From contig CAZMTL010000005.1 of the NCBI GenBank assembly GCA_964569575.1, forward strand, positions 9,053 to 73,052: a DNA stretch of 64,000 bases. Direction: 5' to 3'. Source of the stretch: an uncultured Gammaproteobacteria bacterium (lineage in GTDB: Bacteria; Patescibacteriota; Patescibacteriia; UBA9934). The translations under genes and the position numbers were made by a program. How positions within the stretch are numbered: the first letter of the stretch is position 1; the number at the start of each line of letters is the position of its first letter. This document shows, in pieces, positions 39 to 40,800 of this stretch. The notes beneath the pieces are model-generated. The model was not told where the DNA came from. It was given only the letters and a program-made list of their open reading frames with translations, and made no database searches.

Positions 39-112
39 TTCGATTGTTTCCACAGCTTGTCGATTTTAAATTGAGTAACTGTGATAAAATAGATGCATCA
101 CTAACCGTCATC

Positions 113-1915: not shown

Positions 1916-1916
1916 C

Positions 1917-7900: not shown

Positions 7901-10900
7901 ATTACTCGACAACTGGAATTTCGCTATTGCGCTCGAAGATGTTCGATTGTGTCAGGAGGGTGGAGTGTATACTTCTACCGTGTGTTCTGCTGATGTTGAG
8001 TGTTCAGCGACTGCTGGAGCCGTTTGTGGTTCGGAGAAGGCAAAAATTACTCGTGATACGAAGCGGTTGGCAGATATTACAACGATTAGTCGTCAGTTGA
8101 GTGCTTATGCGGTGCAGAATCGGTTCTGTTCTCAGACGACCGGTTTGAGTTGTCTTTCGAATGCGGATTGTCCTGGAACGGAATTGTGTGTTGATACCTA
8201 CCCACAGTTAGACGCGGGAACATTTGTGCGTTCGATTGATTCGAGTGCTTGGCCAAGTTGGAACGAAGTTTTGGGAACGCAAATTGGAGCCATTCCTTCC
8301 GATCCGTTAAATCGCTACAACGCTTGTGGTGAAGGAACTGCGTACGGTGATCACGATGCGGCCACTTGTGTAAATCAAACAACCGGCGTGTATTTGTGTC
8401 CAGAGAATTCGTATGCATACCATTACCGATCTGTTGGCGCGAATGCATTCGAGCTTAGCGCGGAACTTGAGTATGTAGGTACAGGTGCCCAGGCTTGGGT
8501 GAATGCGATTGATCCGGTAGCAGGTGATCAGCGTACGATTCGTGTTGGAAACGCGAATCCGAATTCGGGAGCAGGATTTTCTTCTGCTCAAGCGTTTTGT
8601 TCGAATGCGAGCTACGGTGGGTCGGATATTTGTGGTGATGGAATTGTTGGTCCGAATGAAGTGTGTGAAGTTGGCCAGGCTGGAGCGATGAATACGTGTG
8701 ATTTGAACGGGGATGGCGCTGCTGATTCGGTGCGTCCTACGGTCTGTAATGCAAGTTGTACTGGATTTGTGGAAACGGCCGGAGCAGATGCGGACGTATG
8801 TGCGTCATTTGCTTGTGGTAATGGAGTTATTGAACAGGGTGAAGCATGTGACGATGGCGCGTTGAATGGTCAGTATGGTTACTGTAGTTCGACGTGTTCA
8901 GGTGCTGGATTTTTCTGTGGAGATGGTCGAATTGCTGGCGGTGAATCGTGCGATTGCGGTCTTGATGGAAGTGGGGTGAGTGCGAGTGGTGGCGCGTGCA
9001 GCTCGCCAAATGGTGTGTACGGTTCAAATTTGAATAATACGTGTGCATGGGATTGTGGTGGTTCTGCGGCATTCTGCGGAGATTCGATTATTCAGGCAGG
9101 CGAACAATGTGATGGAAATGTTGAAACATGGGCAGGTGCTGTGTGTCGAACAGGTGCGAATATGGGTGATGCGTGTACAACGGATGCGGATTGTGGTGGC
9201 GGAGTTTGTGGAGGGTCGCGTCCAACGAATGCGTGTCCGACAAGTCGCGTGTGTTTAGATGGTCCGCAAGAAGGGTATGGATGTACGGCAGATGTCCAGT
9301 GTCCAGGAAGTACGTGCTCTGTGTTTACTGTTCAGACGGCGCGAACCAAGACTTGTGCTGATAACGGATTGGCAGGTGATAGCTGTTCGTGGGTTGGCGG
9401 AGATACGTTTATTGGTAAGGATTGTCGTGCGGCGGTTTCGTGCGGAAATGGCGTGGTTGATGCAGGAGAACAGTGTGATGATGGAAATGATGTAAATACA
9501 GATGCGTGTACAAATAGTTGTATCGCAAACGTGTGTGGAGATGGAATCGTTCAGGCTGGTGTTGAGCAGTGTGATTTGGGTACTCAAAACGGTCAGCAGT
9601 GTTCTTCGGCTTATCAGTCTTCGTGTAACTATTGTTCACCGACTTGTACATTATTGGCTTCTTCTGGGGCATTTTGTGGCGACGGTGTGCGCAACGGTGG
9701 TGAATTCTGTGATGCAGGAGATTTGCAGTATTACTGGTATTCCGCGTCTACGCGTACCGTTCGAAATGATGTCGCGACGTGTTTGGCGACTCAGGTTGGT
9801 CAAACGGTTACTGTTGCCGGTGTTCAATACGCGTGTACAAATATTGGAGCGTGTAATGGTGGAGTGAATAATGCGGATTTGTGTTCTTCGAATGCTCAGT
9901 GTGGTGGTGGAGGTTCGTGTGTGTTCCCGCAATGTGATTTGTCTTGTGGAAGTTCGTGTCCGTTAACGCTTACACCCGCTTCAGTGCAGTTCCTCGATAA
10001 TCAAGTTGGCGCAGTTCGTTCAGGTACGGTTGATTTGTTGAGCGCTTCTGAAACTTTGGATGCGGTTCTTCTGGGCGATCCAAATGCAGCAACGGCATAT
10101 ATTCCGGCTTGTCGAGTGGCAGATGATTTCATTATCGATATTTCTGGAACGAATCGAAGTTATCCGGATGTGGAGGTGATGTTCGTGCTGGATGAATCTC
10201 GCTCTATGACTTCGTCGCTTGGCGGTCAGCCTCGATTACAAGTCTTAAATGATGCGGTGAACGATGCAATCGATGCGTTATTCGACGGTTACTTGGGCCG
10301 TTCAGCGACGATGAGTATTGGTCTTTCTAGCTTTGGAGGAAGTCACTTTGTTCCAAATACAAATCGTACAGAGGTTCGGGATATGTTGGTTCTTTCTACG
10401 CGCGATGCCGCTTCTCGTAATCGTGCAGAGGTGAAGGCTGCGGCAAATCTTGTCTTAACCCAGGCGATTATGAATCCCGAAGGAACTCCTCTTTACGAAG
10501 CTATTCGTGATGCTCGAGACGGATTCACCGATGATCCGGACAGTCACAAAATTATCGTCATCTTCAGTGACGGGAATGTATATAACCCACAGGCTGAATA
10601 TGCATCGTTCCAGTCACATCTTGCAACTCCGTATGATCAGGGTGGTACGATGGACGCGCCAAAATATATGGCAGAGGTCTCGGATTTGATTGATCTGTAT
10701 AAGAGCCCAGCGGGTGGTGATATTGAAGTCTTTACCGCTATTTTGTCGAGTGGAGCTTGTAATGCTCAGCAAATGCAGCGTTGGTCTAGCATGACTTGTA
10801 CGGCTCAGCCTCGAGGATGTGCGCCTATTTCTGCGGAAGGAAATCATTCCTGCGTTGTTCCTCCAAATGGTGTGAATTATGCCTACCAAGCTTCTACCGC

Positions 10901-11150
10901 GGAAGAGTTGCGTGACATGTATGAATCGATTGTGAATTCAATCTTGAATATCACTGTTTCACTTACACATCAGGGAGAAACGATGTCAGTGACTCTGCCT
11001 GCGGGGTCGAATACACAGTTGGCGATTCCGGGAGCGTTTGCGTGTAATGGATTAACTGAACAGTCGATGACAATTAAAGCGTCCTTTGTTGATACGGGTG
11101 AAGGAACGGTTCAGTTGAGTGGTGGAGAAATTGATATGTGTCGTCCTTAA
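1917..11150 (+). CDS. Giant (about 3077 aa) pilin-domain fusion adhesin. Domain order: signal/TM, VirB2/TrbC-like hairpin (VIYAGFLWMTAAGNSEQVDKAKR), Gly/Asp linker, Big_5 Ig-like domains, IPT/TIG repeats (about nt 3190-4300), a Cys-rich repeat array (5731-6300), a second Cys-rich region (8620-9980), and a C-terminal von Willebrand factor A domain with MIDAS DESRS (about 10160-10760)
   Basis: ORF track 1806..11150; ATG at 1917 directly precedes the signal peptide MSSFFRSIFTLLFSAILFGGFWVLPVNAQ, 1 nt after the upstream stop; motifs read from the translation (GxYVTVTGSGF repeats, CGNGVVExGEDCDDGNxxxGDGCSxxC repeats, DESRSM...IIVIFSDGN). Confidence 0.85.
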   Translation: MSSFFRSIFTLLFSAILFGGFWVLPVNAQVADQVNDSLTVVGEGSGLSNQDLPTTIAKIINVVISLSGIILLVLVIYAGFLWMTAAGNSEQVDKAKRILVQAVIGLIIVFASFAITQFVISSLSNATGLQDGGSGGDDDDDGGGLGGSGSTSFTVAGVVPQGEVLIRNIVVQATFSRVVDESSVNNNSFQVVRVSDQEEVDGDLIVLGNRISFTPDQTCPDPNGDRFCFDENTAYEIRLTGDLESTNGRNLTTCANGCSYLFTSGSVVDVENPTVRFTVPAANERVSVNEVVPVQVFATDDYAVAGSDFAVDQAFFDSVGVPGVQTEVAIDSAWDTTTPVATVENTSYTLLSQVRDLAGNTATAQRSVRATPAHCFNGVVDSGATPPEEGLDCGGVCGACNGGACTENDQCSSGACLNGTCQSIPVISDVSPRDGAPGTYVTVTGSGFESVAGIVYFSDGSGGLVPSAVTACGEGWSATEIIVAVPEGAVDGPLTLQTNSGLEDTTNNDTGAFIEDFDVNTLERPSICRLAPNSSPSGSFVDVIGVNFGTTEAAVLFEGAQTVEARTYASWSDSEIELTVPSVRVGLHDVFVRVGGIESNKVQFNASEILSNAPVLATVAPASGGAGQYVTFSGSNFGTATGLVYFENVLTGVKTIADTNFPAVCAEGFWRADEVVVKVPDVDEGAYFVSVERGTDGADSNTLDFLVTNAAPTPGICSVSPARGLEGADVVISGENFGSQQGRALFYNEVSAINPVWGTSQISVTVPDGTSTGPLVIENAAGVQGNSVLFELGETDGDVDDAGAVAQYSWTFSTGQIPIAPSVVQACNENTISAVPNAVFSQNVCVNALVVAEFDTLMRHQTITNQTILLERCDSASCASASAVGATVSASSSADRTAFSLQINQGNGRLSPSTTYRVTVSDLVQSLDGTPMNQPFSWTFTTSTSSEDCDVEEVRVSPTRQTLSVLDQQAEYRALPVFGDCQVLVAEDYSWQWSVDESVASIDDTCDEILDGSCATVSALAEGEAVVTASSIDSGISGTGDLVVQFTDPFVQSFWPACSLACVNAQVGASFNIPVLAATVERSGAVALYECSNEFCTDLTLVSENADCVDGSDGCEGFTVRVNQLLRTSTYYRVVVSGDVQSQSGVPLTRLNYGEDYSWTFLTRADAQECAVARVDLSPGNAQVEVVGATQRFTATPFGEADACSVAGQRLNAYGYSWDWTNPIDSSSQSDDNIASWVTLGGELFDANPSSIPAGCSSACTAVGSFPLFAICGNNVVETGEDCDDGNTTGGDGCSSMCLNEGVVGGVCGNTVLDAGEECDDGNSTNGDGCSDMCLREGSQASGLTCGDGIVSRDTRYGGEDCDDGNKKGGDGCSAVCLNEGSQSISTVAAACGNGVVETPYETCDDGNGVSGDGCSNRCLREGISATVATGFICGNGVTERLPSGGGEDCDGGEGCSVTCRFEGSSTDYSTPSVCGDGIAGIGELAMCEAGYSGDGFDDPVQLAVIDGDAAQFVDESGLATQSIEVTLAPVTATANLQLSCSANSDADCPVGFGADQNGCCSERPTITAFPNGANACLNSAIYVTSNREMDLASFDDAAYVVYEGASCPQNHTTLALYRAVHKNWFARAWISIQTFFVRGANAQVSGDCVVPVERFVQSKVSDTEYRISFITNTLLEAGAPYAIVLEAGAEGVTTSTGVALANEVRQSFSTGSEICRLSQVEIVDETGVVPGLFRSLSETHDMIALPYAVLNGVRSEIQPVQGVYSWNWLPWQEDSGATLFSVQNQTTTPDRASVSTLGENGEATLVAQAQIIENSAPTGVVVDDTLRLRALLCENPWPSADLFPFEDSQAGFDRGIPNLLQTPDWMNFETYYCRDTSTEGALLPSLNIVSSTDTTSAGVIKEYFFAVGASRDVIGIRVVANPQYLSPSDWYTAQGFTGTASEEQVDGFEAVRSGRTIYVAAPNVSNVGTAMYSNIYAISYNEDASAQTQQIFEQLLDNWNFAIALEDVRLCQEGGVYTSTVCSADVECSATAGAVCGSEKAKITRDTKRLADITTISRQLSAYAVQNRFCSQTTGLSCLSNADCPGTELCVDTYPQLDAGTFVRSIDSSAWPSWNEVLGTQIGAIPSDPLNRYNACGEGTAYGDHDAATCVNQTTGVYLCPENSYAYHYRSVGANAFELSAELEYVGTGAQAWVNAIDPVAGDQRTIRVGNANPNSGAGFSSAQAFCSNASYGGSDICGDGIVGPNEVCEVGQAGAMNTCDLNGDGAADSVRPTVCNASCTGFVETAGADADVCASFACGNGVIEQGEACDDGALNGQYGYCSSTCSGAGFFCGDGRIAGGESCDCGLDGSGVSASGGACSSPNGVYGSNLNNTCAWDCGGSAAFCGDSIIQAGEQCDGNVETWAGAVCRTGANMGDACTTDADCGGGVCGGSRPTNACPTSRVCLDGPQEGYGCTADVQCPGSTCSVFTVQTARTKTCADNGLAGDSCSWVGGDTFIGKDCRAAVSCGNGVVDAGEQCDDGNDVNTDACTNSCIANVCGDGIVQAGVEQCDLGTQNGQQCSSAYQSSCNYCSPTCTLLASSGAFCGDGVRNGGEFCDAGDLQYYWYSASTRTVRNDVATCLATQVGQTVTVAGVQYACTNIGACNGGVNNADLCSSNAQCGGGGSCVFPQCDLSCGSSCPLTLTPASVQFLDNQVGAVRSGTVDLLSASETLDAVLLGDPNAATAYIPACRVADDFIIDISGTNRSYPDVEVMFVLDESRSMTSSLGGQPRLQVLNDAVNDAIDALFDGYLGRSATMSIGLSSFGGSHFVPNTNRTEVRDMLVLSTRDAASRNRAEVKAAANLVLTQAIMNPEGTPLYEAIRDARDGFTDDPDSHKIIVIFSDGNVYNPQAEYASFQSHLATPYDQGGTMDAPKYMAEVSDLIDLYKSPAGGDIEVFTAILSSGACNAQQMQRWSSMTCTAQPRGCAPISAEGNHSCVVPPNGVNYAYQASTAEELRDMYESIVNSILNITVSLTHQGETMSVTLPAGSNTQLAIPGAFACNGLTEQSMTIKASFVDTGEGTVQLSGGEIDMCRP
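5731..6300 (+). repeat. In-frame tandem DNA repeats (about 96-108 nt period, 5-6 copies) encoding myxo-type cysteine-rich repeats (C-G-N/D-G-x-V-E-x-G-E-x-C-D-D-G-N-x3-G-D-G-C-S-x2-C)
   Basis: Recurring 'gaggattgtgatgatggaaa...ggtgacggctgttcg...tgtttg' units visible at nucleotide level. Confidence 0.8.
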
Positions 11151-21796: not shown

Positions 21797-21821
21797 CGCC
21801 CCGCGAGTTGATCGCGGGGCG
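21797..21821 (+). terminator. GC-rich hairpin (10-bp stem CGCCCCGCGA/TCGCGGGGCG, 5-nt loop) then CTTCTATT
   Basis: Perfect inverted repeat 16 nt after the stop of 21320..21781. Confidence 0.55.
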
Positions 21822-21827
21822 CTTCTA

Positions 21828-22370
21828 TTAGAACGTAAAGTTGAATTGTGCGAGCGGGTCGATGAATGTCACGTTTGTTGGTGCTTCGAACATCGAATCG
21901 TTTACATTTTCTCGAGAGCAATTTACATCAACGTCAGGTTGGTAGTTTGTACCGCTTCCGTTGTTTGATGAATCTGTTGTTGTTCCTTCGCTTTCATAGT
22001 CTTGCAAGGCGTCACTCAATCCGCAGAGTTTCATTCCTTCACTTCCGCCTTCTTCCCATGTGTAGGTACATTCTCCGTCCGAGATCACTCGGCCAGTTCT
22101 TCCATCAACATCCGCTTCAATAGCGAATTTGTCGTTTTTGATGTAGCTGGTACCTGTTCCGTATTCCCCGGACCAGGTGCATTTGAGTGATTCGCCACGT
22201 TGTAGGGCGGCTGCGAAAGAACCGGTGAATGTAGAATCGTTGTTTGATTCTACCGATGTTTTGGTGTCGGTTGTTTCCATTCCGTTGTTATTGACGGTGT
22301 TATTGGTTGCACAACCAGCTCCTAGAAGGAGAATGACGGCCAAGGCGGTGAAGGTGAGTGATGTTTTCAT
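21828..22370 (-). CDS. Putative lipoprotein (signal peptide with LLGAGC lipobox-like cysteine), Asn/Thr/Gly-rich
   Basis: MKTSLTFTALAVILLLGAGCATNN...; normal (low) GC. Confidence 0.65.
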   Translation of the reverse strand: MKTSLTFTALAVILLLGAGCATNNTVNNNGMETTDTKTSVESNNDSTFTGSFAAALQRGESLKCTWSGEYGTGTSYIKNDKFAIEADVDGRTGRVISDGECTYTWEEGGSEGMKLCGLSDALQDYESEGTTTDSSNNGSGTNYQPDVDVNCSRENVNDSMFEAPTNVTFIDPLAQFNFTF

Positions 22371-22381
22371 AGGGTCAATTT

Positions 22382-24370
22382 CTATTTTTCAAACTTGTTA
22401 AACAGGGTTGGGTCGATGTCCATTACTTTTGTGGCCCAGTCATTTCCGAAGCGTTGTCGAGCAACTTCTTCGGATGGAATATATTCTAACGCTTCACGCA
22501 CGTTTCCGGCAATAACTAGATACGTTTCTGGTTTGCTTTGAATTTTTACGAGCGTTCCTGCTTTTGGTAGCACGGGCATTCCGAGCGGGATCGTTGGAAG
22601 TGTTGCGTCGGTAACGATTTTGATATTGTCGAAGTTTGCGAATCGAGTGAAGTAAATGGCTTCGTTCATGAATGGCCGACGCGTTCCGTTTTCGATTAGG
22701 TAGACGGTGTCGTAGTTTTGGCCTCGAATCAACTGTGCGCCCGTGATGTCGGTGATTAGCTCGATGTTTCCTGTGAACGGTGATGGTCCTGTTGTAGGTG
22801 ATTCGGTTGATTCCTCTTCGTCCACTTCTTCTTCGATCACTTCGTTTTCACATTCAAACGACAGTTGTTCGCTTGCACTTGTTGAGGTGATTGATCCGCT
22901 TGTGTTTCGCAGGGCGAGGTAGACCGTTGTAGTGGATTGTTTGATCTGAAAATTCCACGACTTTGTGATACTTTCTGCCGTTAATTCTTGCCATGTCGCA
23001 TTTGAAAAATCTGCATTGTTCGAAAGAATGTATTCAGTTGCCCCGGCTGATTGAATGTTTACTTCACCTGTCAGGCTTCCAGAATCGCACGAATAGGCGA
23101 GGGAGTGGATTGAGAGAGAGGCTGTCGTGATCGGTGTTGCACTTGTTTCGGAAGACGAACTTCGTTTTACCGAGAAATTCCAGGTGGTTTCGTTGTTGAT
23201 TCCTGGGAATATTCCACCGCCGTCAACAGCGAATGCTCCGCTGTCGATTTGAATGTAGACATCTTCGCCGTTTGGTAATTGGCCTGGCTCGATGGTGATG
23301 GTTTCGGTTCCTGATCCGCTTACGCGATTGCTTTCAACATCGATTGTTGAAAAAAGTACGTCGTTGTTTGTGCGGTAGATGTAGATGTTTCCGGTTCCTG
23401 TGATGACGTCCTGGTCGAAGGTGATTTCTAGATCTGCACTTCGTAGTACGTCAACTTCGTTATCTGTTGGAGAGAGAGTTACGATTTCTGGTGCTTCGAA
23501 TGCGGTGAGGGAGAATTCTGCTCCAGCAGTTTCGGGCATATCTCCGTCTGCTCCGAACTCGACGACGTATCCAGGAAGCATACTTGTAGCACAGCCGAGG
23601 TCATTCCATTCGCCGCTTTGTAATCCACCCGAGAGGAACTGCGCGCAGTCTTCGCTGCTACTGCTGTCGTTTGGTTCGTTTTCGTTCCAGTTTTCGTATT
23701 CCCCAGGCACAACAGCTCCAAATTGATCACCTACCCAGAATAGGTCACCTGTTTCTGGTCCGGTCACCCAGCGCCATTCGTCTTCCACGGCGGCGTCGCT
23801 TGCACCCATCCATCCAGCTCCGCCAAGTCGAGCGGCGACGAAGTCATTTTCTTCCTGTGAAGTGATGGTGGTGAGATATCCTGTGGCTCCATAGCGTTCA
23901 AGTCCTGCCGCGGCGATCTGAGCATTGTTCCAGTTGATGTTTCCTGGCACGGAAATATATTCGTACAAATGTCCATTTCCGGAAAAGAATACTTCGCCTT
24001 CTTCTACGAGCGATACTTCTAATGTGTCGGCGCCGGTTGAGTCGGCTGTGTAGAGAAGTGTTGCGAGTGCTGCGTTTACATCTTCGACATCGCCTGAAAA
24101 GTAGAGTTCTGCTCCAGTTTCTGGACCGGTAAACGTGAGTCCGGTTGTTGTTGTCATTTCGAGCGTTCCGTTGCTTACGAGTAATTTTACCGGAATGACT
24201 CCTACGGCATTAAGAACTTCGATGCCTGTTAAAAGGATAGGTAGGTCGACTGTTGCTGTTTGGTTGTCGTCGCCGATGACTTCTAATTCACCGTCAGCAT
24301 AAGTTGGCTGAATGTGCAGCAGGGAAGTTGCAAGCACGCTGATTAATAACGCGCCAAGAATCTTTTTCAT
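22382..24370 (-). CDS. Secreted C-type lectin domain protein (CTLD with EPN and WND motifs) plus a C-terminal domain shared with the 1679-aa protein
   Basis: ORF 22382..24397 trimmed to MKKILGALLISVLATSLLHIQPTYA (signal peptide); CTLD motifs WNNAQ...C, ITSQEENDFV, GWMGASD...EDEWRWV, WNENEPN, EDCAQF, GEWNDLGC. Confidence 0.85.
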   Translation of the reverse strand: MKKILGALLISVLATSLLHIQPTYADGELEVIGDDNQTATVDLPILLTGIEVLNAVGVIPVKLLVSNGTLEMTTTTGLTFTGPETGAELYFSGDVEDVNAALATLLYTADSTGADTLEVSLVEEGEVFFSGNGHLYEYISVPGNINWNNAQIAAAGLERYGATGYLTTITSQEENDFVAARLGGAGWMGASDAAVEDEWRWVTGPETGDLFWVGDQFGAVVPGEYENWNENEPNDSSSSEDCAQFLSGGLQSGEWNDLGCATSMLPGYVVEFGADGDMPETAGAEFSLTAFEAPEIVTLSPTDNEVDVLRSADLEITFDQDVITGTGNIYIYRTNNDVLFSTIDVESNRVSGSGTETITIEPGQLPNGEDVYIQIDSGAFAVDGGGIFPGINNETTWNFSVKRSSSSETSATPITTASLSIHSLAYSCDSGSLTGEVNIQSAGATEYILSNNADFSNATWQELTAESITKSWNFQIKQSTTTVYLALRNTSGSITSTSASEQLSFECENEVIEEEVDEEESTESPTTGPSPFTGNIELITDITGAQLIRGQNYDTVYLIENGTRRPFMNEAIYFTRFANFDNIKIVTDATLPTIPLGMPVLPKAGTLVKIQSKPETYLVIAGNVREALEYIPSEEVARQRFGNDWATKVMDIDPTLFNKFEK

Positions 24371-24480
24371 ACGAAAAATAAAGTAATATTGGCTCAATTA
24401 TAACACGGACGCACGGATTATTTTTTGTTTGGAAGTGTGGGTGTTGATAGGTTTTGTGGGGAGGGTTGAAAATGAAAAAA

Positions 24481-24505
24481 CCACAGCCGAAGCTGTGATT
24501 TTTTC
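24481..24505. terminator. Bidirectional terminator CACAGC-CGAA-GCTGTG flanked by A/T runs, just 3' of tRNA-Asp
   Basis: aaaaaaccacagccgaagctgtgattttttc. Confidence 0.6.
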
Positions 24506-24581
24506 TGGCGGGCTGGACGGGACTCGAACCCGCAACTTCCGCCGTGACAGGGCGGTGCTCTAACCATTGAACTACCAGCCC
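24506..24581 (-). tRNA. tRNA-Asp (anticodon GUC), CCA encoded
   Basis: Minus-strand read GGGCUGG-UA-GUUC-AAUGGUUA-GAGC-A-CCGCC-CU-GUC-AC-GGCGG-AAGUU-GCGGG-UUCGAGU-CCCGU-CCAGCCC-G-CCA folds as a cloverleaf. Confidence 0.9.
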
Positions 24582-24668
24582 ATTTGTGTGACACAGACGC
24601 GTGTCAGTAAATGGTGGCGAAATGGTATCAAATCATCTTTTTTTTGGCAAGAAACGGTTATAAACAAG

Positions 24669-24703
24669 AGAGCCCCCTTTCAGCGAGTGCTGTAGGGGGC
24701 TCG
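24669..24703 (-). terminator. GC-rich hairpin (9-bp stem GAGCCCCCT/AGGGGGCTC) 3' of the island gene 24729..25964
   Basis: Perfect inverted repeat with a 16-nt loop. Confidence 0.5.
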
Positions 24704-24728
24704 AGAGAACTGGCGCAGTGGCGCTGGT

Positions 24729-25964
24729 TCAGAAGGTGGTGAACGTCGGGCAGTTGGCGCCGGACGGGAAGCAGGCCTTGGTGAGAGCGATGTTGTCGCT
24801 TCCGTTCACCCAGGTGCAGCTTCCGTCATCGTTGCGGTTGAACGTGCCGTGGAGCTGGTAGACCGTGCCGGTCTTCAGTGCCGTTTCGTTTGGAACCGTG
24901 ATGGTGAGCGAGTCGTGCACAATGATTGCGGACAGGTCCTCGACGGTGCACTTGACCGGTTCGCTGTTCGCTGTCGCCGTATCTGACTGCGGCATCGTTC
25001 CCGTTTGCGTCATTGCGATGGTTGTCGGTTGACTGGTTGTTGCGACCGTCGGTTCCTGCGGTGGCATGGTGACAGTGCGCTTGGGCATGATTCCTTCAAT
25101 AGGAAGCTCTGCCCGGACTACGCGTTGCGCAGTTGGCCGGATTTCGCTTTCGCCCACGTTCCAGTTCGAGATCATCACCACCGTCATGGTGAGAGCCAGA
25201 ATTCCGCTCATCGTGAAGAGTGCCGCGAGTACGCTTGCGATTCCGATCGTTGGGATGAACCAGCCGCGCAGTTGCGTTCGCTCGGTTTCTTCTTCGTCCT
25301 CTTCCGTTTCCTGAGAGGCCCTGAAGAACTCGTCCTCGAAGTCCTTGGTCGTCAGTGGCTCTCCTCGTGCGTCGGTCGGTGCCGTGTTTGTAGTAGCGCC
25401 TTCCTTGGCTTTTTCGAACCACGGAGTTTCGGTGACTTCGTTGAACGGGTCGCCGGTGTCTTCGGCGGGCTTCTTCTTGAAGAGGGTTGTCGCAGGCACG
25501 CCCTCTTCTACCACCAGCCCTGCGAGAGGGTCTCCCTCGTCGAAGCTGTCGAGATCGCCTGGAGGGAGATCGGGCAGGCCTTCATCGTTGAAGGTAGTGG
25601 CAGCGTGGTCGCGAAGACGCATGATGCCAGTATCCCCTTCTTTGAACGTGAGGTAGCCGTCCTCGGGAACGATGGTGTCGGCGCTGTCCCTCGTGCGTCC
25701 ATTGCCGGAGCTGAGTACACGGGTGGCTGCACCTGGGTGGGTAGAGAGCTCCGCAGCCGCTTCTTTGGCCGGAGCCGTTGTTGCCGCTTCCGCTGCCTTG
25801 GCTTCCCCCGCTGTCTTTGCCGCTGCGCGCTCTTTCATGTTCTTGAGGTGTTCTTCTGCGGTCGGTCGCTCTCCTTCGATTTCTTTGCAGGCCGCGACGA
25901 GATTCTTGAAGTCCTCGCAGGACTGGTCGATGCGGGCCGAGCTGTCTGGCGTGTCCTTACCCAT
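24729..25964 (-). CDS. Hypothetical single-pass membrane protein (acidic, Ala/Glu-rich cytoplasmic N-domain; extracytoplasmic Cys-containing C-domain) in a high-GC island
   Basis: ORF 24729..26267 trimmed to the ATG at 25964 with a GGAG SD; GC3 about 85% over the first 13 codons; TM helix GWFIPTIGIASVLAALFTMSGILALTMTVV. Confidence 0.6.
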   Translation of the reverse strand: MGKDTPDSSARIDQSCEDFKNLVAACKEIEGERPTAEEHLKNMKERAAAKTAGEAKAAEAATTAPAKEAAAELSTHPGAATRVLSSGNGRTRDSADTIVPEDGYLTFKEGDTGIMRLRDHAATTFNDEGLPDLPPGDLDSFDEGDPLAGLVVEEGVPATTLFKKKPAEDTGDPFNEVTETPWFEKAKEGATTNTAPTDARGEPLTTKDFEDEFFRASQETEEDEEETERTQLRGWFIPTIGIASVLAALFTMSGILALTMTVVMISNWNVGESEIRPTAQRVVRAELPIEGIMPKRTVTMPPQEPTVATTSQPTTIAMTQTGTMPQSDTATANSEPVKCTVEDLSAIIVHDSLTITVPNETALKTGTVYQLHGTFNRNDDGSCTWVNGSDNIALTKACFPSGANCPTFTTF

Positions 25965-26124
25965 GCTGTCTCCAGATGCTGATTGGTGAAAGATCGAGGT
26001 TGAATATTTCAAACATAGATGTCTGAACTGACGGATAGTACAGGAAATACCAAGAATGTCAATAAATACAAAGCGATCCCCAGCGCCGAAGCGGTGGGGA
26101 TCTCGATTTCGCCTGGCGCTGCGC

Positions 26125-26718
26125 TTATCGCGCGGCCAGGCAGGTGTTGGGCATGTCGCCCGTCTCGCCCGGGGTGGGCTGACGAGCGACATTGCACCAA
26201 CGCGCGGGGCACTGGTCGGTGGCCCCGAAGATGCGCGTGAAGCCCTCGTGGGCCAGCGCACCTTCACCGATGGTCTTGAGGTCGAGGCAGTTGGCCTCGA
26301 CCGCCTTCTTGATCGTGGATGGCTTGCCGTCCACGGTGGGGGTGAAGTGCATCTCGCCGTTGGCGGAGCACTCCACGTCGCGGAGGCTCCAAGCCTGTCC
26401 GCTCCAGGTGAAGGCCACGACGCCGTTGACGGGCATCGTGGCGGGGGCGAGGCAGCTGATGAGCTGCTCGTTCTCGTTCGGCGTCACCGTCTCCCCGACC
26501 ACCTGGGTGGTGGTCGGGGAGACGGCAGGGGGCCACATCATCCACGCAGCGCTCGTGAGAGCGAGGAGGATGAGGCCGATGCCCAGCAGGCTGAGGAGGC
26601 TGATGCCCCCGCACCCGATGGTCGTCGGCCACCACGAGCGCGTCGCGCGTCGCGGGGGCGGCGTGGGGCGACCCGGGAAGGGGGCGTCCGTGGGGTCCTG
26701 GTTGGGTTCGATCGCCAT
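26125..26718 (-). CDS. Hypothetical single-pass membrane protein (Pro-rich cytoplasmic N-terminus, TM helix, Cys-containing ectodomain) in a high-GC island
   Basis: ATG at 26718 with a GGAG SD; high GC3; a perfect TTGACA -35 at 26812-26817 on the minus strand. Confidence 0.6.
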   Translation of the reverse strand: MAIEPNQDPTDAPFPGRPTPPPRRATRSWWPTTIGCGGISLLSLLGIGLILLALTSAAWMMWPPAVSPTTTQVVGETVTPNENEQLISCLAPATMPVNGVVAFTWSGQAWSLRDVECSANGEMHFTPTVDGKPSTIKKAVEANCLDLKTIGEGALAHEGFTRIFGATDQCPARWCNVARQPTPGETGDMPNTCLAAR

Positions 26719-26852
26719 GGATTACTCCGTGCCAGCTCTTGCTGGCGGGTGTGAGGTAAGGGGGCCGACTTACTGAAGTCGACTGATTAAACTATCACAA
26801 AATAGTCTTTTTGTCAAGGAATATATAGTTATTTCTCCTAAAACCAAAAACC

Positions 26853-26878
26853 AGCCGGATTGGCTGGTTTTTGTGAAA
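26853..26878. terminator. Bidirectional terminator CCAGCC-GGAT-TGGCTGG with A/T flanks, 3' of rplT
   Basis: aaaaaccagccggattggctggtttttgtg. Confidence 0.65.
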
Positions 26879-26882
26879 TAAG

Positions 26883-27230
26883 CTATTTCTTTGCTGTTTC
26901 TACGATCTTTTTGAAGACGTTTGGATAGTGTTCTGCAATTTGAGCTAGAACTTTTCGGTCTAGTTCGATTCCTGCGATCTTTAATCCGTTGATCAACTGT
27001 GAGTAGGTTGTTCCGTTTGCACGGGCTCCTGCGTTGATCTTTACGCTCCAAAGACGTCGGAAGACGCGCTTTTTTGCTCGGCGATCTCGGAAGGCGTTTA
27101 CTCCAGCTTTTAGGAAGGCTGGACGTGCCAATCGAATTTTATTTTTTCGGCCCCATCGGTACCCTTTTACTTTCGCAAATAGGCTGTTTCGTCGTTTTAC
27201 GTGTTGGACCCCTCGTTTTACTCGTGCCAT
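26883..27230 (-). CDS. rplT: 50S ribosomal protein L20
   Basis: MARVKRGVQHVKRRNSLFAKVKGYRWGRKN... Confidence 0.95.
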   Translation of the reverse strand: MARVKRGVQHVKRRNSLFAKVKGYRWGRKNKIRLARPAFLKAGVNAFRDRRAKKRVFRRLWSVKINAGARANGTTYSQLINGLKIAGIELDRKVLAQIAEHYPNVFKKIVETAKK

Positions 27231-27231
27231 A

Positions 27232-27429
27232 TTATGAGTTGTAAGGCATTAGTGTTTGCAAGGCTGTTTTCTTCGTGCTCGGCACCTTTACGTCAGAACG
27301 CTTGTTTCGGCGTGTGTTTCCGTTTTCACGAGAGTTAAAATGACCTTGACCAGCTTTTCGTTTAATCACTTTGCCGGTTTTTGTGATCTTCATGCGCTTC
27401 GAAAGCGCTTTGTGCGTTTTTTGCTTCAT
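27232..27429 (-). CDS. rpmI: 50S ribosomal protein L35
   Basis: MKQKTHKALSKRMKITKTGKVIKRKAGQGHFN...; no infC upstream. Confidence 0.9.
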   Translation of the reverse strand: MKQKTHKALSKRMKITKTGKVIKRKAGQGHFNSRENGNTRRNKRSDVKVPSTKKTALQTLMPYNS

Positions 27430-27690
27430 ATCACTTTTATTGACGCTTGTTGTGGCCGATCTTAATTGATCGTTGAAGCCAAATACAATGCGAGAATGAA
27501 CGGTGGGAGTATACGGGAAGAAGCGGATTTCGTCAAGATTTTGATCATTTCGTCCTAACCTTGACCAAAAACGGATTTTTCTTTATACTTCCGGCCATAA
27601 ATCAACTAATTTTCAGACCTGAAAACCCTTTTTGATCATCCTCCCGATTCGCTCGGGCGATCGAAAAGCAGGTCGACGTACAAGGAATTT

Positions 27691-28533
27691 ATGAAAACTA
27701 TTCCAACATTGGAAGAATTGCTAAAAGCCGGAGTTCACTTCGGACATCGTACATCTCGATGGCACCCTAAGATGGGACCGTATATTTTTGGCGTTCGAAG
27801 TGGTATTCACATTATCGATATCGCTCAGACACAAAAGTATCTTCAAGAAGCTGGTGAGTATATCAAAACAGTTGTTGGCCGAGGCGGTACTATTTTGTTC
27901 GTTGGAACAAAGAACCAAATTACCGATGCGGTAGAAAAATCAGCAAAAGCGTGTTCAATGCCTTACATCAATAACCGATGGCTTGGTGGAACATTTACGA
28001 ATTTCACAGAAATTCAAAAGTTGATTCGAGAATATCTTGATTTGCAAGATAAGCGTTCGAAGGGTGATTTGAAGAAGTACACAAAACTTGAACAGTTGCA
28101 GTTCGATCGCAAGATTGACGAATTGGATGAAAAGATTGGTGGTATTTCTACATTGACTCGTCTTCCAGATGCGATTTTTGTCTTCGATGTACGAACAGAA
28201 AAGACAGCGATTGCGGAAGCTCGAAAGCGTGGAGTAAAGGTGATTGCGATTTGCGATACAAACGTAAATCCAACTGACATTGATTACGTTATTCCAGCAA
28301 ACGATGATTCTATCCGAGGAACTGAATTGATCGGAAAGGTGATTGCGGAAATGGTGAACGAAGGAAAGAAGTTGGTTGGAAAATCAGCGGATCAATCTAA
28401 AGCTCCTGCAAAGAAAGTACAGAAAGAAGAAGAGGTTGATGTAACAAGTGCTTCAAAAGAAACGGTTGAAGACTTGGATGATGAAATCAAAGAGAAGCTC
28501 GCGAAAGAACGAGAAGAAACTCTTAAAAAATAG
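27691..28533 (+). CDS. rpsB: 30S ribosomal protein S2
   Basis: LLKAGVHFGHRTSRWHPKM...; AAGGAA SD. Confidence 0.95.
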   Translation: MKTIPTLEELLKAGVHFGHRTSRWHPKMGPYIFGVRSGIHIIDIAQTQKYLQEAGEYIKTVVGRGGTILFVGTKNQITDAVEKSAKACSMPYINNRWLGGTFTNFTEIQKLIREYLDLQDKRSKGDLKKYTKLEQLQFDRKIDELDEKIGGISTLTRLPDAIFVFDVRTEKTAIAEARKRGVKVIAICDTNVNPTDIDYVIPANDDSIRGTELIGKVIAEMVNEGKKLVGKSADQSKAPAKKVQKEEEVDVTSASKETVEDLDDEIKEKLAKEREETLKK

Positions 28534-37120: not shown

Positions 37121-37750
37121 TTATGCGTGCGTAAATTTTCGAATAACTGCTTTTACGATTCCTTGGATATTGATGTCTCCTCGAATGATGATAGGGCTCA
37201 TGGTGCTATTCGCTGGCTGTAGTCTGATGTGGTCGCTTTCTCGGTAGAATCGTTTAAGTGTCGCGTAGGCATTGTCGAGTAGAGCTACGACTATGTCCCC
37301 ATTTCTTGGAGAGTGGTTTCGTTCGATGACGACGTAGTCACCGTCGAAAATGCCGTCTTCGATCATTGAGCGTCCTTTTACTTTTAGTACGTATGAGTTT
37401 TCTGGGTCTAGGACGAAGTCAGAAGGCACCGCGAACGCGTCCTGGTCTTCGATGGCTTCTATCGGCTCACCGGCGGTGATCACACCTACGAGAGGGAGGG
37501 CGATGCTCATTGGGGAAAGGTTTTCCGTTTCGATCAGTTCTATCGATCGCGCACTTCCGTCCTCGGCCGTGTTGATGACTCCTTTTTCACAGAGCGCTTG
37601 AATGTGCTGGTGAACCGTTGAAGGGGAGGCGTAGCCTAGTTTTTCTGCGATTTCACGGTATGAGGGCGTGTAGCCGTTTGCTTGAATGAAGGATTCGATG
37701 CAATCGAGTACTTGCTTTTGTTTCTTTGTAAGTGGGGGGAGTTGGTTCAT
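37121..37750 (-). CDS. lexA: LexA repressor (S24 peptidase)
   Basis: ORF 37121..37855 trimmed to MNQLPPLTKKQKQVLDCI; wHTH N-domain; Ser (KGRSM) and Lys (ATLKRF) catalytic dyad. Confidence 0.9.
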   Translation of the reverse strand: MNQLPPLTKKQKQVLDCIESFIQANGYTPSYREIAEKLGYASPSTVHQHIQALCEKGVINTAEDGSARSIELIETENLSPMSIALPLVGVITAGEPIEAIEDQDAFAVPSDFVLDPENSYVLKVKGRSMIEDGIFDGDYVVIERNHSPRNGDIVVALLDNAYATLKRFYRESDHIRLQPANSTMSPIIIRGDINIQGIVKAVIRKFTHA

Positions 37751-37785
37751 AGATTCTTGTTCGCTTTCTGTTCTTATTTTAATAC

Positions 37786-37812
37786 GAACAAAAAACGAAC
37801 ACAATTTTGTTC
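37786..37812. promoter_or_regulatory. Candidate SOS operator(s) in the lexA promoter: direct repeat GAAC-N7-GAAC (37786-37800) overlapping the imperfect palindrome GAACAcAATTTTGTTC (37797-37812)
   Basis: Read directly from the sequence, 36-62 nt upstream of the lexA start codon; GAAC/GTTC half-sites are shared by several described LexA box classes. Confidence 0.4.
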
Positions 37813-37873
37813 TGTGGATAACTTCGACTTTGCCTGTAAATACAAGAGAAAACATCCCGAAGGATGTTTTTCT

Positions 37874-40800
37874 TTAAAGGAGTTTTCGAAGAGACTGGAT
37901 TACGAGCGTTGCTGCGCCTGTGCTTGCTGTTTCTTGAATTGTTTCGATCGCTGCTCGTGTGAATTCTTTCAATCGATTGAAGAATTCGCTTGTGATTCCT
38001 CTATCTTCTTCGCTCGAAGACCGTTCGTTGAGTAGTTCTCGTTTTCGCGCTTCCGAAAACTCTATTCCGTCATTGAGAATGTCTTCTTCCGACATGTATG
38101 GAGCTTCGAAAACGAATTGATTTGTCAGCGTTGGGTTTAGGTCCAGTACATAGTCCGCCCAATTTTCACCTGCGATAAATGTTGCCAGCTCTTCTGTTTG
38201 CACCCAGCGTAGCTTTCCTGTCGTTGGATCGTTTGGATCTTGATGGAAGTAGTACACTTCATCCCGACTTTGGAATTTTACAAATGCTACGTGTTCACGT
38301 GGAAGCATTGGTTCTTGTATTGAGAATTCGCGTAATGTTTCGTCTGAAACCCATTTCACGTTTTCGAATGACCGTGCATGTGTAAAATAGCTGGTTTCGT
38401 CTACGAATGGTCGACGCGAAAGATCGCGGTCGATGCAGTAGACGGTTTCGAAGTTTTTGGAACGAATGTAGTCGCCTGGGAAGATTTTATCAACCGGTAC
38501 CAAGTCGCCCGACGTTGGCGAAACTCCGAGTTGGTAGCGAGCGCGATCGGCGGATGAAAGAGGAGTCATGAAGATGCTTTCGCATCCGAGAACAGGCTCT
38601 GTCTCAGGTTCGGAATTGTCACATTGTGTTGCTTCGTCAATATTGATATCGAAGACGAATGTTCCTGTTTGTTGCGCTCCGTTTCGGAATCGGATATAGA
38701 GCGTGTGTAGCCCGTCGTTGTTTGTTCCTACGAATGACGTTGTCATCGTTTGAGTGGTGAGCGCTTCTGTTCCTTGGTCTGGAATGTAGGATTGCCAAAG
38801 CGCACCAGCGAAGTCGATATTTTCTGCAATGATGTAGTCACTAATTTGAGATCCGCTCAATTGCAGAAGGATGGTGTTTGTTGGCGAGCATACCGGAAGG
38901 CTGACAGAGATATTTGTAGGAGGGACTGGTTCTGGACCACCGCTTCCGCCACCACCGCCACCTCCTCCTGAGTCGTTGTCGATGTTTACAATGGCGACGT
39001 CCTCGCCGTCTACAGAGTCGTAGATTGGGGCAGTTGTTTCTGCAACGTCAATGACTACTTGTGCGAGATAGGCAATGTTTCCGTCGACGATTGCGTCGTC
39101 TTGACCGGTTACAGTAACCGTTTGAGGAATGTCCCAGTTTTCTGAGTCGAACCAAAGTTCGCTACCACTCGTGATGGTTCCTTCAGTTAAGTCACTCGAA
39201 CTAATATCGAAATGGACCTCCGTTCCAATAGCTGGTCGAGCGGTGATTTCTACGGTAAATGTTCCTGTTACTCCTGCTTCGGTTGTGTTGTTCGAAATTG
39301 TCGATACGATTATTCCAGAAACGTCGTCGTCAATGTTAGTGACTGCTACTTGCTCGCTTGCGATCACATCGTATTCGTCTGCAAGTGTAAGATCTTGATC
39401 GATGGTGACATCTATATTGTAATCAATGTCTCCGTCATCGAAGTCGTCATCTTGTCCAGTAATGGTTACTGTTTGCGGGATGGCCCAGTCTTCTGTTGTG
39501 AATGTGAGTATGGAACCAGTTGTTACAATTCCTTCGTCTGTATTGTCGGACGCTGTATTGATGATGACTGTGTTTGTCGGTTCGGTTAAGAGGACAACGG
39601 TAAACGTAGCTGTTATGCCAGCTTCGGTCGTATCATTTGATATTTCTGAAACAAGAATTCCGGGTTCATTATCAGTTTCTGCGTTGAAGAGAAGGCTATC
39701 TACTTGGGGATTTTCGTGTGTGTCGTTTGAGAAGAAGGTTGCTGAACTATAAACGTCATCCACGTTGGTATCCCATCCGTTTACAGCGGTTAAATCTGCT
39801 TCGTCGAGTAGTTCGAGGGCGGTGCCGGTCATTCGGTTGTTCGGCCCGTCTGCAATGGATTCCGAAATGGCGGTTGCTGCTTCGCTTACGCTTGCGACTG
39901 CCCATGTTCCGCCGTTTTCTCGGTAATACCAGGTTCCGTCAACGTTTCCGTGAACGAGCGTATCGTTTGAGGCGATGGGTCGTAGGTCTGCGTTGATTCG
40001 ATACGTAGCTCCTTCATCGAACGAAAGGGCGTAGTAGATGGACTGGTTATTGAGGGTTTCTGCTACATCGATGTCACTGAGCGTGAGAAGGGCGCTTGTG
40101 TCGGCTGCTGCTGTTAGTTCGGTGACAATGGTGTAGTACGTGTTTTCTTCTACGCCGTAAACTACTTCGTGTAGGAAGTTTTCAGATCCTTCTTCGAATA
40201 TTTCTTCTGCATCGAGTGACCACAGGTCTCCTTGGCTGTCGATGGCCGCTGCGTTTATTGAACTACTTTCTGTTGCGATGTCTTCGAGGAAGTTGTCGCT
40301 TTCTAAGTCGTATCTGGACCAATTAGCTATTCCTAGGTAGAGAATATTTCTTGTGGGTTCGATAACCATGTCCTGAACTTGTCCGGTTGGTTTGTAGAAC
40401 TCTACGGCGAGTGTCGCGCTATCGATGGCGATCAGGAAATTATTTGCAATCAGGATGCGTTCATTCAGGTTGTCGTAGAGCATGGTTGTAGGTGTTCCTT
40501 GCGATAGACTTGGTGTGGAGTGCAATTGTACGCTGCTGTTTTCGAAGGTACCGTTGTAGTACGCGCCTGTTGCGGCGTTTATTTTTACTGCAAGATCTTT
40601 TACTGAGGTGGTGATGACCGCCCAGATTGCATCTTCGTTTGAATCATAAGCAAGATCAAGTATTTGGTCATTTTCTTCCAAAATACTGCCGTTGATCGTG
40701 TAGGAGCTGTTAGCAATGTTGCCGTTCGCAAATGCGCCCGTGACTGCGTTTATTTTTACAATGTTTGGAATGCCTTGGTCGTCTTCGTCCGCGACCCAAA

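Follow-up and report, generated by a model that had tools for sequence, protein, structure and literature searches.

A predicted EPN-type C-type lectin in a modular, candidate surface protein of Patescibacteria

A gene on a 64,000-nucleotide stretch of DNA bears on the question of how ultrasmall Patescibacteria recognise their partner cells and keep hold of them. The stretch (GenBank assembly GCA_964569575.1, contig CAZMTL010000005.1, positions 9,053 to 73,052 of the forward strand), which we refer to as the window, is deposited as an uncultured Gammaproteobacteria bacterium and placed in the Patescibacteriota by GTDB. The gene (nt 22382-24370 of the window, on the minus strand like all parts of it described below) encodes a 662-residue protein in which an earlier sequence-only reading had found what it called a canonical C-type lectin domain (CTLD). 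Does this domain belong with the C-type lectins, would it bind calcium and sugar, and to what might the protein attach the cell? Residues are numbered here from the Met at 24370; counting from a TTG upstream, as the open reading frame (ORF) was first given, adds 9.

The CTLD covers residues 125-275 (134-284 in TTG numbering; nt 23546-23998) and is of the long form, with a long-loop region. The slightly shorter span given in the sequence-only reading, TTG-numbered residues 139-281, corresponds exactly to nt 23555-23983. Pfam Lectin_C (PF00059) matches residues 171-272 with 40.5 bits against a gathering cutoff of 22.6 (E=5.1e-10), and phmmer against PDB sequences returned 74 C-type lectins at E≤0.01, headed by CD23, langerin, mannose-binding protein (MBP) and DC-SIGN, with the EPN, the Glu preceding the Cys and the WND all in register in the alignments to langerin and CD23. 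An AlphaFold2 model of the protein, based on 120 homologues, shows clear domain boundaries and has a mean predicted local distance difference test score (pLDDT) of 91.5. The secondary structure of the domain runs β0, β1, α1, β1', α2, β2, two short strands with the long loop, β3, β4, β5, so that the long-loop region lies between β2 and β3-β4-β5 as in the CTLD double-loop fold. Both the profile match and the predicted fold bear out the family assignment that had been made from motifs. The pLDDT falls to 79-80 in the EPN loop, which we would guess reflects the absence of Ca2+ from the model.

The domain is only 17-29% identical to the animal EPN-type carbohydrate-recognition domains (CRDs) of mannose-binding protein, langerin, DC-SIGN, collectin-11 and SRCL, which share PF00059 with it, and it departs from them in three ways. 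It contains two cysteines only, C242 and C260 (C251 and C269 in TTG numbering), which make up the canonical C2-C3 pair; the C1 position is taken by Ala154, an Ala that is invariant in the family, and β5 has Val/Glu in place of the Cys, so that a C1-C4 disulfide cannot form. The core motif WIGL occurs as the variant G-W-M-G-A, in which W187 is invariant and G189 97% conserved in the 120-homologue alignment. Lastly, the long-loop region holds 16-20 residues more than the animal archetype, and this insertion is itself conserved, with G204-P205-E206, F211-W212, G214 and Y225 invariant in the family. The sequence-only reading had matched the domain to the consensus almost motif for motif; six of its seven motifs are there verbatim, while the seventh, W-x-x-A-x-x-x-C, reads WNNAQIAA, and the word canonical fits the Ca2+/sugar signature but not the missing disulfide, the WMGA or the insertion. 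The absence of the C1-C4 disulfide is a departure within the Lectin_C family and not an exclusion from it. Judged by its sequence, its modelled fold and its Ca2+-site signature, the domain is a genuine long-form member of that family.

The predicted principal ligands of the Ca2+ and sugar are in the EPN, E232-P233-N234 (241-243 in TTG numbering), which lies at nt 23669-23677, just where the sequence-only reading had put it, and which is present in all 120 homologues. W255-N256-D257 (nt 23600-23608) would provide the second half of the principal site, with the Asn and Asp invariant and the Trp 99% conserved. Between the two, E240-D241-C242 (nt 23645-23653; each invariant or 99%) would contribute the principal-site Glu, an auxiliary-site Asp and a Cys that pairs with C260 (nt 23591-23593) in the only disulfide; the Cys pair is invariant in the alignment. 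The EPN...E...WND signature of a long-form CTLD, as first described for this protein, is therefore complete, and E232, P233, N234, E240, N256 and D257 are all invariant among the 120 homologues. The candidates for the auxiliary site, which are placed by sequence alignment only, are D192 and E196 (invariant), D241 (99%) and D235 (79%); their counterparts in MBP-A we take to be D161, E165, D188 and D194.

The CTLD is also the best-conserved domain of the protein, with a mean identity of 69% among 15 full-length orthologues and 62% in the wider family, as against 57 and 48% for the N-terminal domain and 47 and 38% for the Big_5 domain that follows the CTLD; the C-terminal half of the protein has 29-51% identity among the orthologues. 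Together with the invariance of the site residues this argues that the lectin site is under strong purifying selection. In animal CRDs an EPN confers a preference for sugars whose 3- and 4-hydroxyls are equatorial, such as mannose, glucose, N-acetylglucosamine (GlcNAc) and fucose, and a QPD one for galactose. By analogy with this rule the domain would be expected to bind Ca2+ and sugar, with a mannose-type specificity. CTLDs can also act as scaffolds for a ligand that is not a carbohydrate, be it a protein, a mineral or ice, as in tetranectin, the eggshell CTLDs and the type II antifreeze proteins, where the EPN/WND ligands are typically lost. Such a role would seem very improbable here, as every Ca2+ ligand of the sugar site is invariant in the 120 homologues and is kept in nearly all of the distant ones.

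Around the binding site (nt 23591-23689) the protein differs from its family at several positions. It has NEPN where the family has GEPN (Gly in 82%), a two-residue 'LQ' insertion ahead of the WND that is absent in 91-94% of the family, WNDLG for WNDLP (Pro in 90%) and D197 for Gly (92%). These departures may represent a lineage-specific tuning of the specificity.

Bacterial CTLDs keeping the full signature had been thought uncommon in the sequence-only reading, and this part of it has to be given up. A search with the full-length protein gave at least 473 protein clusters, the best 120 of which all have E<1e-96, are virtually all annotated with Lectin_C and Big_5 and, where a name is given, come from Patescibacteria, Paceibacterota or 'bacterium'. 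We also carried out a pattern scan of the GTDB species-representative genomes, the matches being then confirmed as relatives, which gave at least 599 pattern matches and at least 575 confirmed loci. About 50 of the best 80 of these loci carry Patescibacteria labels (Saccharibacteria, Paceibacterota, Roizmanbacteria, Kaiserbacteria, Minisyncoccia). Also among the best 80 are the cultured, free-living Halopseudomonas oceani, Hymenobacter monticola, Flavobacterium cellulosilyticum, Winogradskyella, Flagellimonas, Roseivirga and Lyngbya aestuarii; Nostoc, Rhodoferax, Nitrosomonas, Sulfurospirillum, Polyangia and Anaerolineae metagenome-assembled genomes (MAGs); and, from the archaea, Methanolobus vulcani and one Methanosarcinales MAG. 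The CTLDs of the relatives outside the Patescibacteria are 40-53% identical to the one described here. On inspection of the 80 loci the D, E, EPN, E-D and WND were found to be retained in nearly all, with the EPN replaced by QPD in one Nostoc copy (L071) and by QPN in one Saccharibacteria copy (L048). EPN CTLDs with the canonical signature are thus neither rare in prokaryotes nor confined to episymbionts. Three of the loci (L044, L050 and L054) contain tandem pairs of CTLDs.

The cysteine pair follows the taxonomy. It is essentially restricted to the Patescibacteria copies, where it is invariant; almost all copies from Proteobacteria, Bacteroidota, Cyanobacteria and archaea lack it, Tyr or Val usually replacing the first Cys and various residues the second. 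Most of the prokaryotic copies outside the Patescibacteria have neither disulfide. Relatives with the Cys pair, full-length or complete at the N-terminus, were also seen on contigs of 0.07-1.6 Mb labelled 'Candidatus Kapaibacterium' or 'uncultured Gammaproteobacteria' (L004, L014, L015, L018, L022); these labels may be mistaken, or the family may reach beyond the Patescibacteria. In these other lineages, too, the domain belongs to surface proteins, with surroundings that differ from one lineage to the next. Bacteroidota relatives carry the type IX secretion system sorting signals CHU_C or Por_Secre_tail, those of Proteobacteria and Cyanobacteria are giant adhesins of the DUF4347 and cadherin types, and the archaeal ones have PKD domains, a C-terminal transmembrane helix and a basic tail. 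Six copies from outside the Patescibacteria, 45-53% identical to the CTLD here and with the EPN and WND kept, were tested against Pfam, and Lectin_C was silent at E≤1e-4 for four of them (e.g. L073:3710-6130, L058:1517-7162 and L053:2378-8560). The domain databases therefore under-count the prokaryotic clade, the Lectin_C model being biased towards animals.

Since Lectin_C consists mostly of metazoan sequences and the best structural matches of the domain are all animal, we considered whether the gene could be eukaryotic contamination or a recently transferred animal lectin gene. This is ruled out by the synteny, the GC content and the distribution of the homologues: the CTLD is 45-73% identical to its prokaryotic relatives as against 17-29% for the animal CRDs, the GC content around the gene (0.48) is in line with that of the window, and the gene sits between a tRNA-Asp and bacterial housekeeping genes. 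The genes nearby encode FtsA, FtsZ, pyruvate kinase, a DNA alkylation repair enzyme, ribosomal protein S2, EF-Ts and GAPDH. A 59%-identical orthologue in the Patescibacteria MAG GCA_018062825.1, on a contig of 406 kb, adjoins PK-NrdR-FtsZ-FtsA as in the window, and this synteny indicates that the lectin gene is a vertically inherited resident, neither contamination nor a recent transfer. The nearest named relatives of the S2 protein belong to Candidatus Uhrbacteria or the 'Patescibacteria group' (57-63% identity), which with the syntenic orthologue upholds the assignment of the genome to the Patescibacteria. If the prokaryotic EPN CTLDs are ancient and were not derived from animals, the use of Ca2+ and an EPN to bind sugars would be older than the Metazoa.

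A different explanation would make the protein the variable target of a diversity-generating retroelement (DGR). Such elements are common among Patescibacteria, their targets have the CLec fold (PMC11661182, PMC8144416), and this was the only context in which we found a 'C-type lectin' discussed in the literature for the candidate phyla radiation (CPR). Our literature search for characterised, canonical Lectin_C proteins of CPR or other bacteria turned up only DGR CLec proteins, LecB (loosely termed 'C-type') and PA14 adhesins. However, the 64-kb window contains no template-repeat-like copy of any part of the gene and no reverse transcriptase YxDD motif in ORFs of at least 200 residues, the ligand residues are invariant where a DGR target would be hypervariable, and the fold is that of the long-form, Ca2+-binding animal CRDs. 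On these grounds, with the search for a repeat and a reverse transcriptase covering the 64-kb window, the idea of a DGR target is in effect refuted.

What sort of protein carries the lectin? The ORF on the minus strand, nt 22382-24397, has 671 codons when counted from the upstream TTG, whereas the ATG at 24370 gives the 662 residues plus stop of the gene as delimited here, consistent with the ORF list, the identical database protein and the AlphaFold2 model. This ATG is very probably the true start because it agrees with the database gene call (P0001, 662 residues, 100% identical) and with the alignment to the signal peptides of the homologues, and because the TTG overlaps a TGnTATAAT extended -10-like element (nt 24397-24405). 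The element was read from the sequence by eye and as a promoter would be putative; a promoter consensus scan, which had no -35 match there, did not report it. From the ATG the protein begins with a signal-peptide-like N-terminus, MKKILGALLISVLATSLLHIQPTYA followed by DG (residues 1-25, nt 24296-24370), of which residues 2-18 are helical in the model. Equivalent N-termini occur throughout the sampled homologues, and the protein is likely to be secreted through the Sec pathway, in line with its first description as a secreted protein.

After the signal peptide come, in order, the N-domain, the CTLD and two Ig-like domains, the first of them Big_5; an acidic linker then leads to the C-terminal domain. 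The N-domain (residues 26-124, nt 23999-24295) is rich in β-structure, is modelled with a pLDDT of 95-98 and is joined to the CTLD without a linker; G68, N99, L102, Y107, G113 and E118 are invariant in it. Its profile found nothing in PDB or Pfam beyond a marginal match to the HPr phosphocarrier protein (E=0.002, 65 residues) and noise, and the HPr-like match is probably fortuitous. In the relatives from outside the Patescibacteria the segment preceding the CTLD is annotated as Big_9 or Cadherin_4. On the other side of the CTLD, residues 283-401 (nt 23168-23524) are a bacterial Ig-like Big_5 domain (Pfam E=2.9e-6) that is all-β in the model, and residues 416-502 (nt 22865-23125) form a second Ig-like β-sandwich with pLDDT >90; the two would make up a stalk. 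They are followed by an acidic, disordered linker, residues 503-526, beginning EVIEEEVDEEESTES (nt 22793-22864), in which the pLDDT drops below 50 at 509-522 and the orthologues are just 19% identical. A signal-peptide-like N-terminus, a CTLD towards the N-terminus, two Ig-like domains and a C-terminal module that presumably acts as an anchor make up the layout of a fibrillar or modular adhesin. The protein lacks the coiled-coil neck or transmembrane stalk of the animal lectins and has in their place a bacterial N-domain, an Ig-like stalk and a candidate wall-binding C-terminus.

The C-terminal domain (residues 527-662, nt 22385-22792) is a candidate cell-wall-binding anchor. Modelled alone it has a pLDDT of 87.5 and is a tandem duplication of a β-β-β-α-β unit; it gave no significant sequence match in Pfam or PDB, and PF01471 (PG_binding_1) and PF01476 (LysM) were absent from the whole protein at E≤1. 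A count by hand over precomputed Pfam annotations puts PG_binding_1 at the position of this domain in 73 of the 120 homologues and LysM in 7; 18 end in the same domain as the protein here. Wall-binding modules are swapped at the C-terminus throughout the family, and we infer that the C-terminal domain is a generic surface-retention module standing in for PG_binding_1 or LysM, which would hold the protein at the wall. Proteins anchored to walls through LysM, PG_binding_1 or the cell-wall-binding domains (CBDs) of phage lysins resemble it in the position of the module, in their small β/α repeats and in the many unrelated passengers. There is a weak similarity in fold to the wall-binding domains of phage lysins (PlyCB and the LysIME-EF1 and Lys170 CBDs), and a link between EccB1 and PlyCB has been described (PMC4769845). 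Scanning viral contigs with the C-terminal-domain profile gave 63 pattern matches, 0 of which were confirmed, though as the scan used a single degenerate pattern this is a weak negative.

The domain is found far beyond the lectins. Its profile, searched against 1.84 billion representative sequences, detected 5,510 proteins at E≤1e-3, of which 3,489 remain at E≤1e-10; the domain is nearly always at the end of the protein, sometimes in tandem repeats, in proteins of 147 to >3,000 residues. The passengers on 73 family members are extracellular and varied: Big_5 is found in 31, followed by Kre9_KNH, FG-GAP, DUF285 and subtilase, and there are also trypsin-like peptidases, SpoIID, PA14, Laminin_G_3 and PKD. 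It seems likely that this is an undescribed, surface-anchoring family. Widespread and without annotation, in thousands of clusters, the domain probably anchors many CPR surface proteins, and it is arguably the most novel element found in this work. In many members the domain is followed by a conserved tail, ..vD.s.MKKR.eL, that is missing from the lectin protein. A paralogue lies within the window itself at nt 38114-38527 (minus strand), near the C-terminus of a 1679-residue ORF (nt 37874-42913, minus strand; tblastn 36% identity over 142 residues, E=2.4e-23). To nt 38681-38887 of that ORF the second Ig-like domain of the lectin protein is also weakly similar. The ORF has zero Pfam matches and probably encodes a further large protein that is kept at the surface by this type of anchor.

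With a CTLD at one end and a C-terminal domain, or PG_binding_1 or LysM in the homologues, at the other, the protein has two ends that could bind wall or glycan. One could imagine that the lectin recognises a glycan of its own envelope, a wall polysaccharide or that of an S-layer, to organise the envelope or hold kin together, and a site that stays the same from lineage to lineage would suit a conserved ligand of this sort. The lectin is, however, held away from the anchor by a stalk and linker as in a fibrillar adhesin, and the cassette is equally conserved in Gram-negatives, cyanobacteria and archaea, whose envelopes have no glycan in common. We therefore think self-binding improbable.

Instead, we lean towards a wall-tethered, Ca2+-dependent surface adhesin for mannose-, glucose- or GlcNAc-type sugars, most plausibly those of a partner cell. 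After Sec export and cleavage of the signal peptide, the C-terminal domain would tether the protein non-covalently to the wall, and the two Ig-like domains with the acidic linker would form the stalk that displays the N-domain and CTLD at its distal tip. The CTLD would hold a Ca2+ through E232, N234, E240, N256 and D257 (EPN...E...WND), and the Ca2+ would ligate the vicinal equatorial 3-OH and 4-OH of a mannose-, glucose-, GlcNAc- or fucose-type sugar. In this way the cell would stick to the glycans of a second surface, the most plausible being envelope polysaccharides of its partner, or host. Two points weigh against a host as the target. We know of no demonstrated host for the Uhrbacteria-like lineage, and its presence in free-living bacteria and archaea marks the EPN/WND cassette as a surface-lectin module of prokaryotes in general, not a device specific to episymbiosis.

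The second of these points leads to an alternative which we regard as a rather unlikely one, though it is to be taken seriously: a general adhesin or capture protein for the glycans of exopolysaccharide, biofilm matrix or detrital and other particles, used for attachment or for scavenging nutrients. The same cassette, at 40-53% identity, is part of adhesin-type proteins in the free-living Halopseudomonas, Hymenobacter, Flavobacterium, Winogradskyella, Lyngbya and Methanolobus, and across very diverse Patescibacteria the binding residues are invariant and show no host-specific hypervariability. Its biochemistry would be the same as that of a partner-cell adhesin, the target alone being different, and the expansion of the family in Patescibacteria (about 50 of the 80 best loci) together with the sugar inhibition published for a Saccharibacterium (PMC11623550) makes a partner cell at least as likely a target.

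Recognition of host glycans, for which the sequence-only reading had called the domain a prime candidate, is plausible by analogy because of the architecture of the protein and because host binding by Saccharibacteria is inhibited by sugars: in TM7x roughly half of the host binding is lost on addition of soluble mannose and glucose and almost all of it with rhamnose, and the authors of that work state that the lectins behind this sugar-sensitive binding are still to be identified (PMC11623550). Transposon sequencing (Tn-seq) in Southlakia has pointed to essential envelope proteins with glycan-binding domains (PMC10633639), although the Tn-seq supplements of that study contain no lectin or Lectin_C entry, and concanavalin-like lectins have been put forward as CPR attachment factors (PMC12911398). 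The same role in attachment is proposed for the L-/PLL-type minor pilins PilX1 and PilX2 of TM7x, the concanavalin-A-like proteins and the VCBS/FN3 proteins of Southlakia, but these belong to other folds and families, and the papers that describe them do not mention a canonical Lectin_C protein (PMC11623550, PMC12911398, PMC10633639). The large, conserved Patescibacteria family described here offers concrete candidates for lectins of sugar-sensitive attachment. To go further and see in wall-tethered EPN lectins the missing host-recognition adhesin of the whole phylum, and in the C-terminal domain an undescribed PlyCB-like anchor family, would be a doubtful step.

The closest functional analogues of the predicted lectin are the PA14 modules of the RTX adhesins of Marinomonas primoryensis (MpPA14) and Marinobacter (MhPA14), which depend on Ca2+, ligate vicinal hydroxyls of terminal fucose, GlcNAc, glucose and mannose and associate the bacterium with partner cells (PMC8092209, PMC6650083). 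Their fold, a β-sandwich, is unrelated, they are anchored in Gram-negatives via type I secretion and they have been characterised experimentally, whereas the CTLD here is known from its sequence and a model. The superfold of the CTLD is shared, in compact form, by the C-terminal domains of intimin and invasin and by the DGR proteins Mtd and TvpA, which bind receptors at the surface of a cell or virion.

Turning to the surroundings of the gene, an ORF for a 180-residue lipoprotein-like protein (nt 21828-22370, minus strand), with the lipobox LGAGC and six further Cys, begins 11 nt downstream and is probably co-transcribed with the lectin gene. The two may have a terminator in common, for which a strong, GC-rich hairpin at 21797-21821 is a candidate. 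Just upstream of the lectin gene is the tRNA-Asp (nt 24506-24581, minus strand), followed by a 512-residue ORF (nt 24729-26267, minus strand) with one transmembrane segment and Ala/Glu/Thr-rich low complexity, to which Pfam has no match and of which the true start is probably downstream of the listed GTG. A conserved operon was considered and rejected, as none of the 82 loci fetched contains a relative of the 180-residue, the 512-residue or a 160-residue ORF. From about 24000 to 28000 the DNA is rich in GC, with 0.55 at 24-26 kb against 0.43-0.49 elsewhere in the window, and it is conceivable that this patch beyond the tRNA-Asp is an insertion at the tRNA. The 1679-residue ORF is followed by the LexA gene (nt 37121-37855, minus strand). 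Near the start of the window a 623-residue ORF (nt 44-1915, plus strand) with T4SS_pilin and Big_5 precedes one of 3114 residues (nt 1806-11150, plus strand), which has an N-terminal T4SS_pilin and then TIG, Big_5, DUF4215 and VWA_2; both look like giant pilin-like surface proteins.

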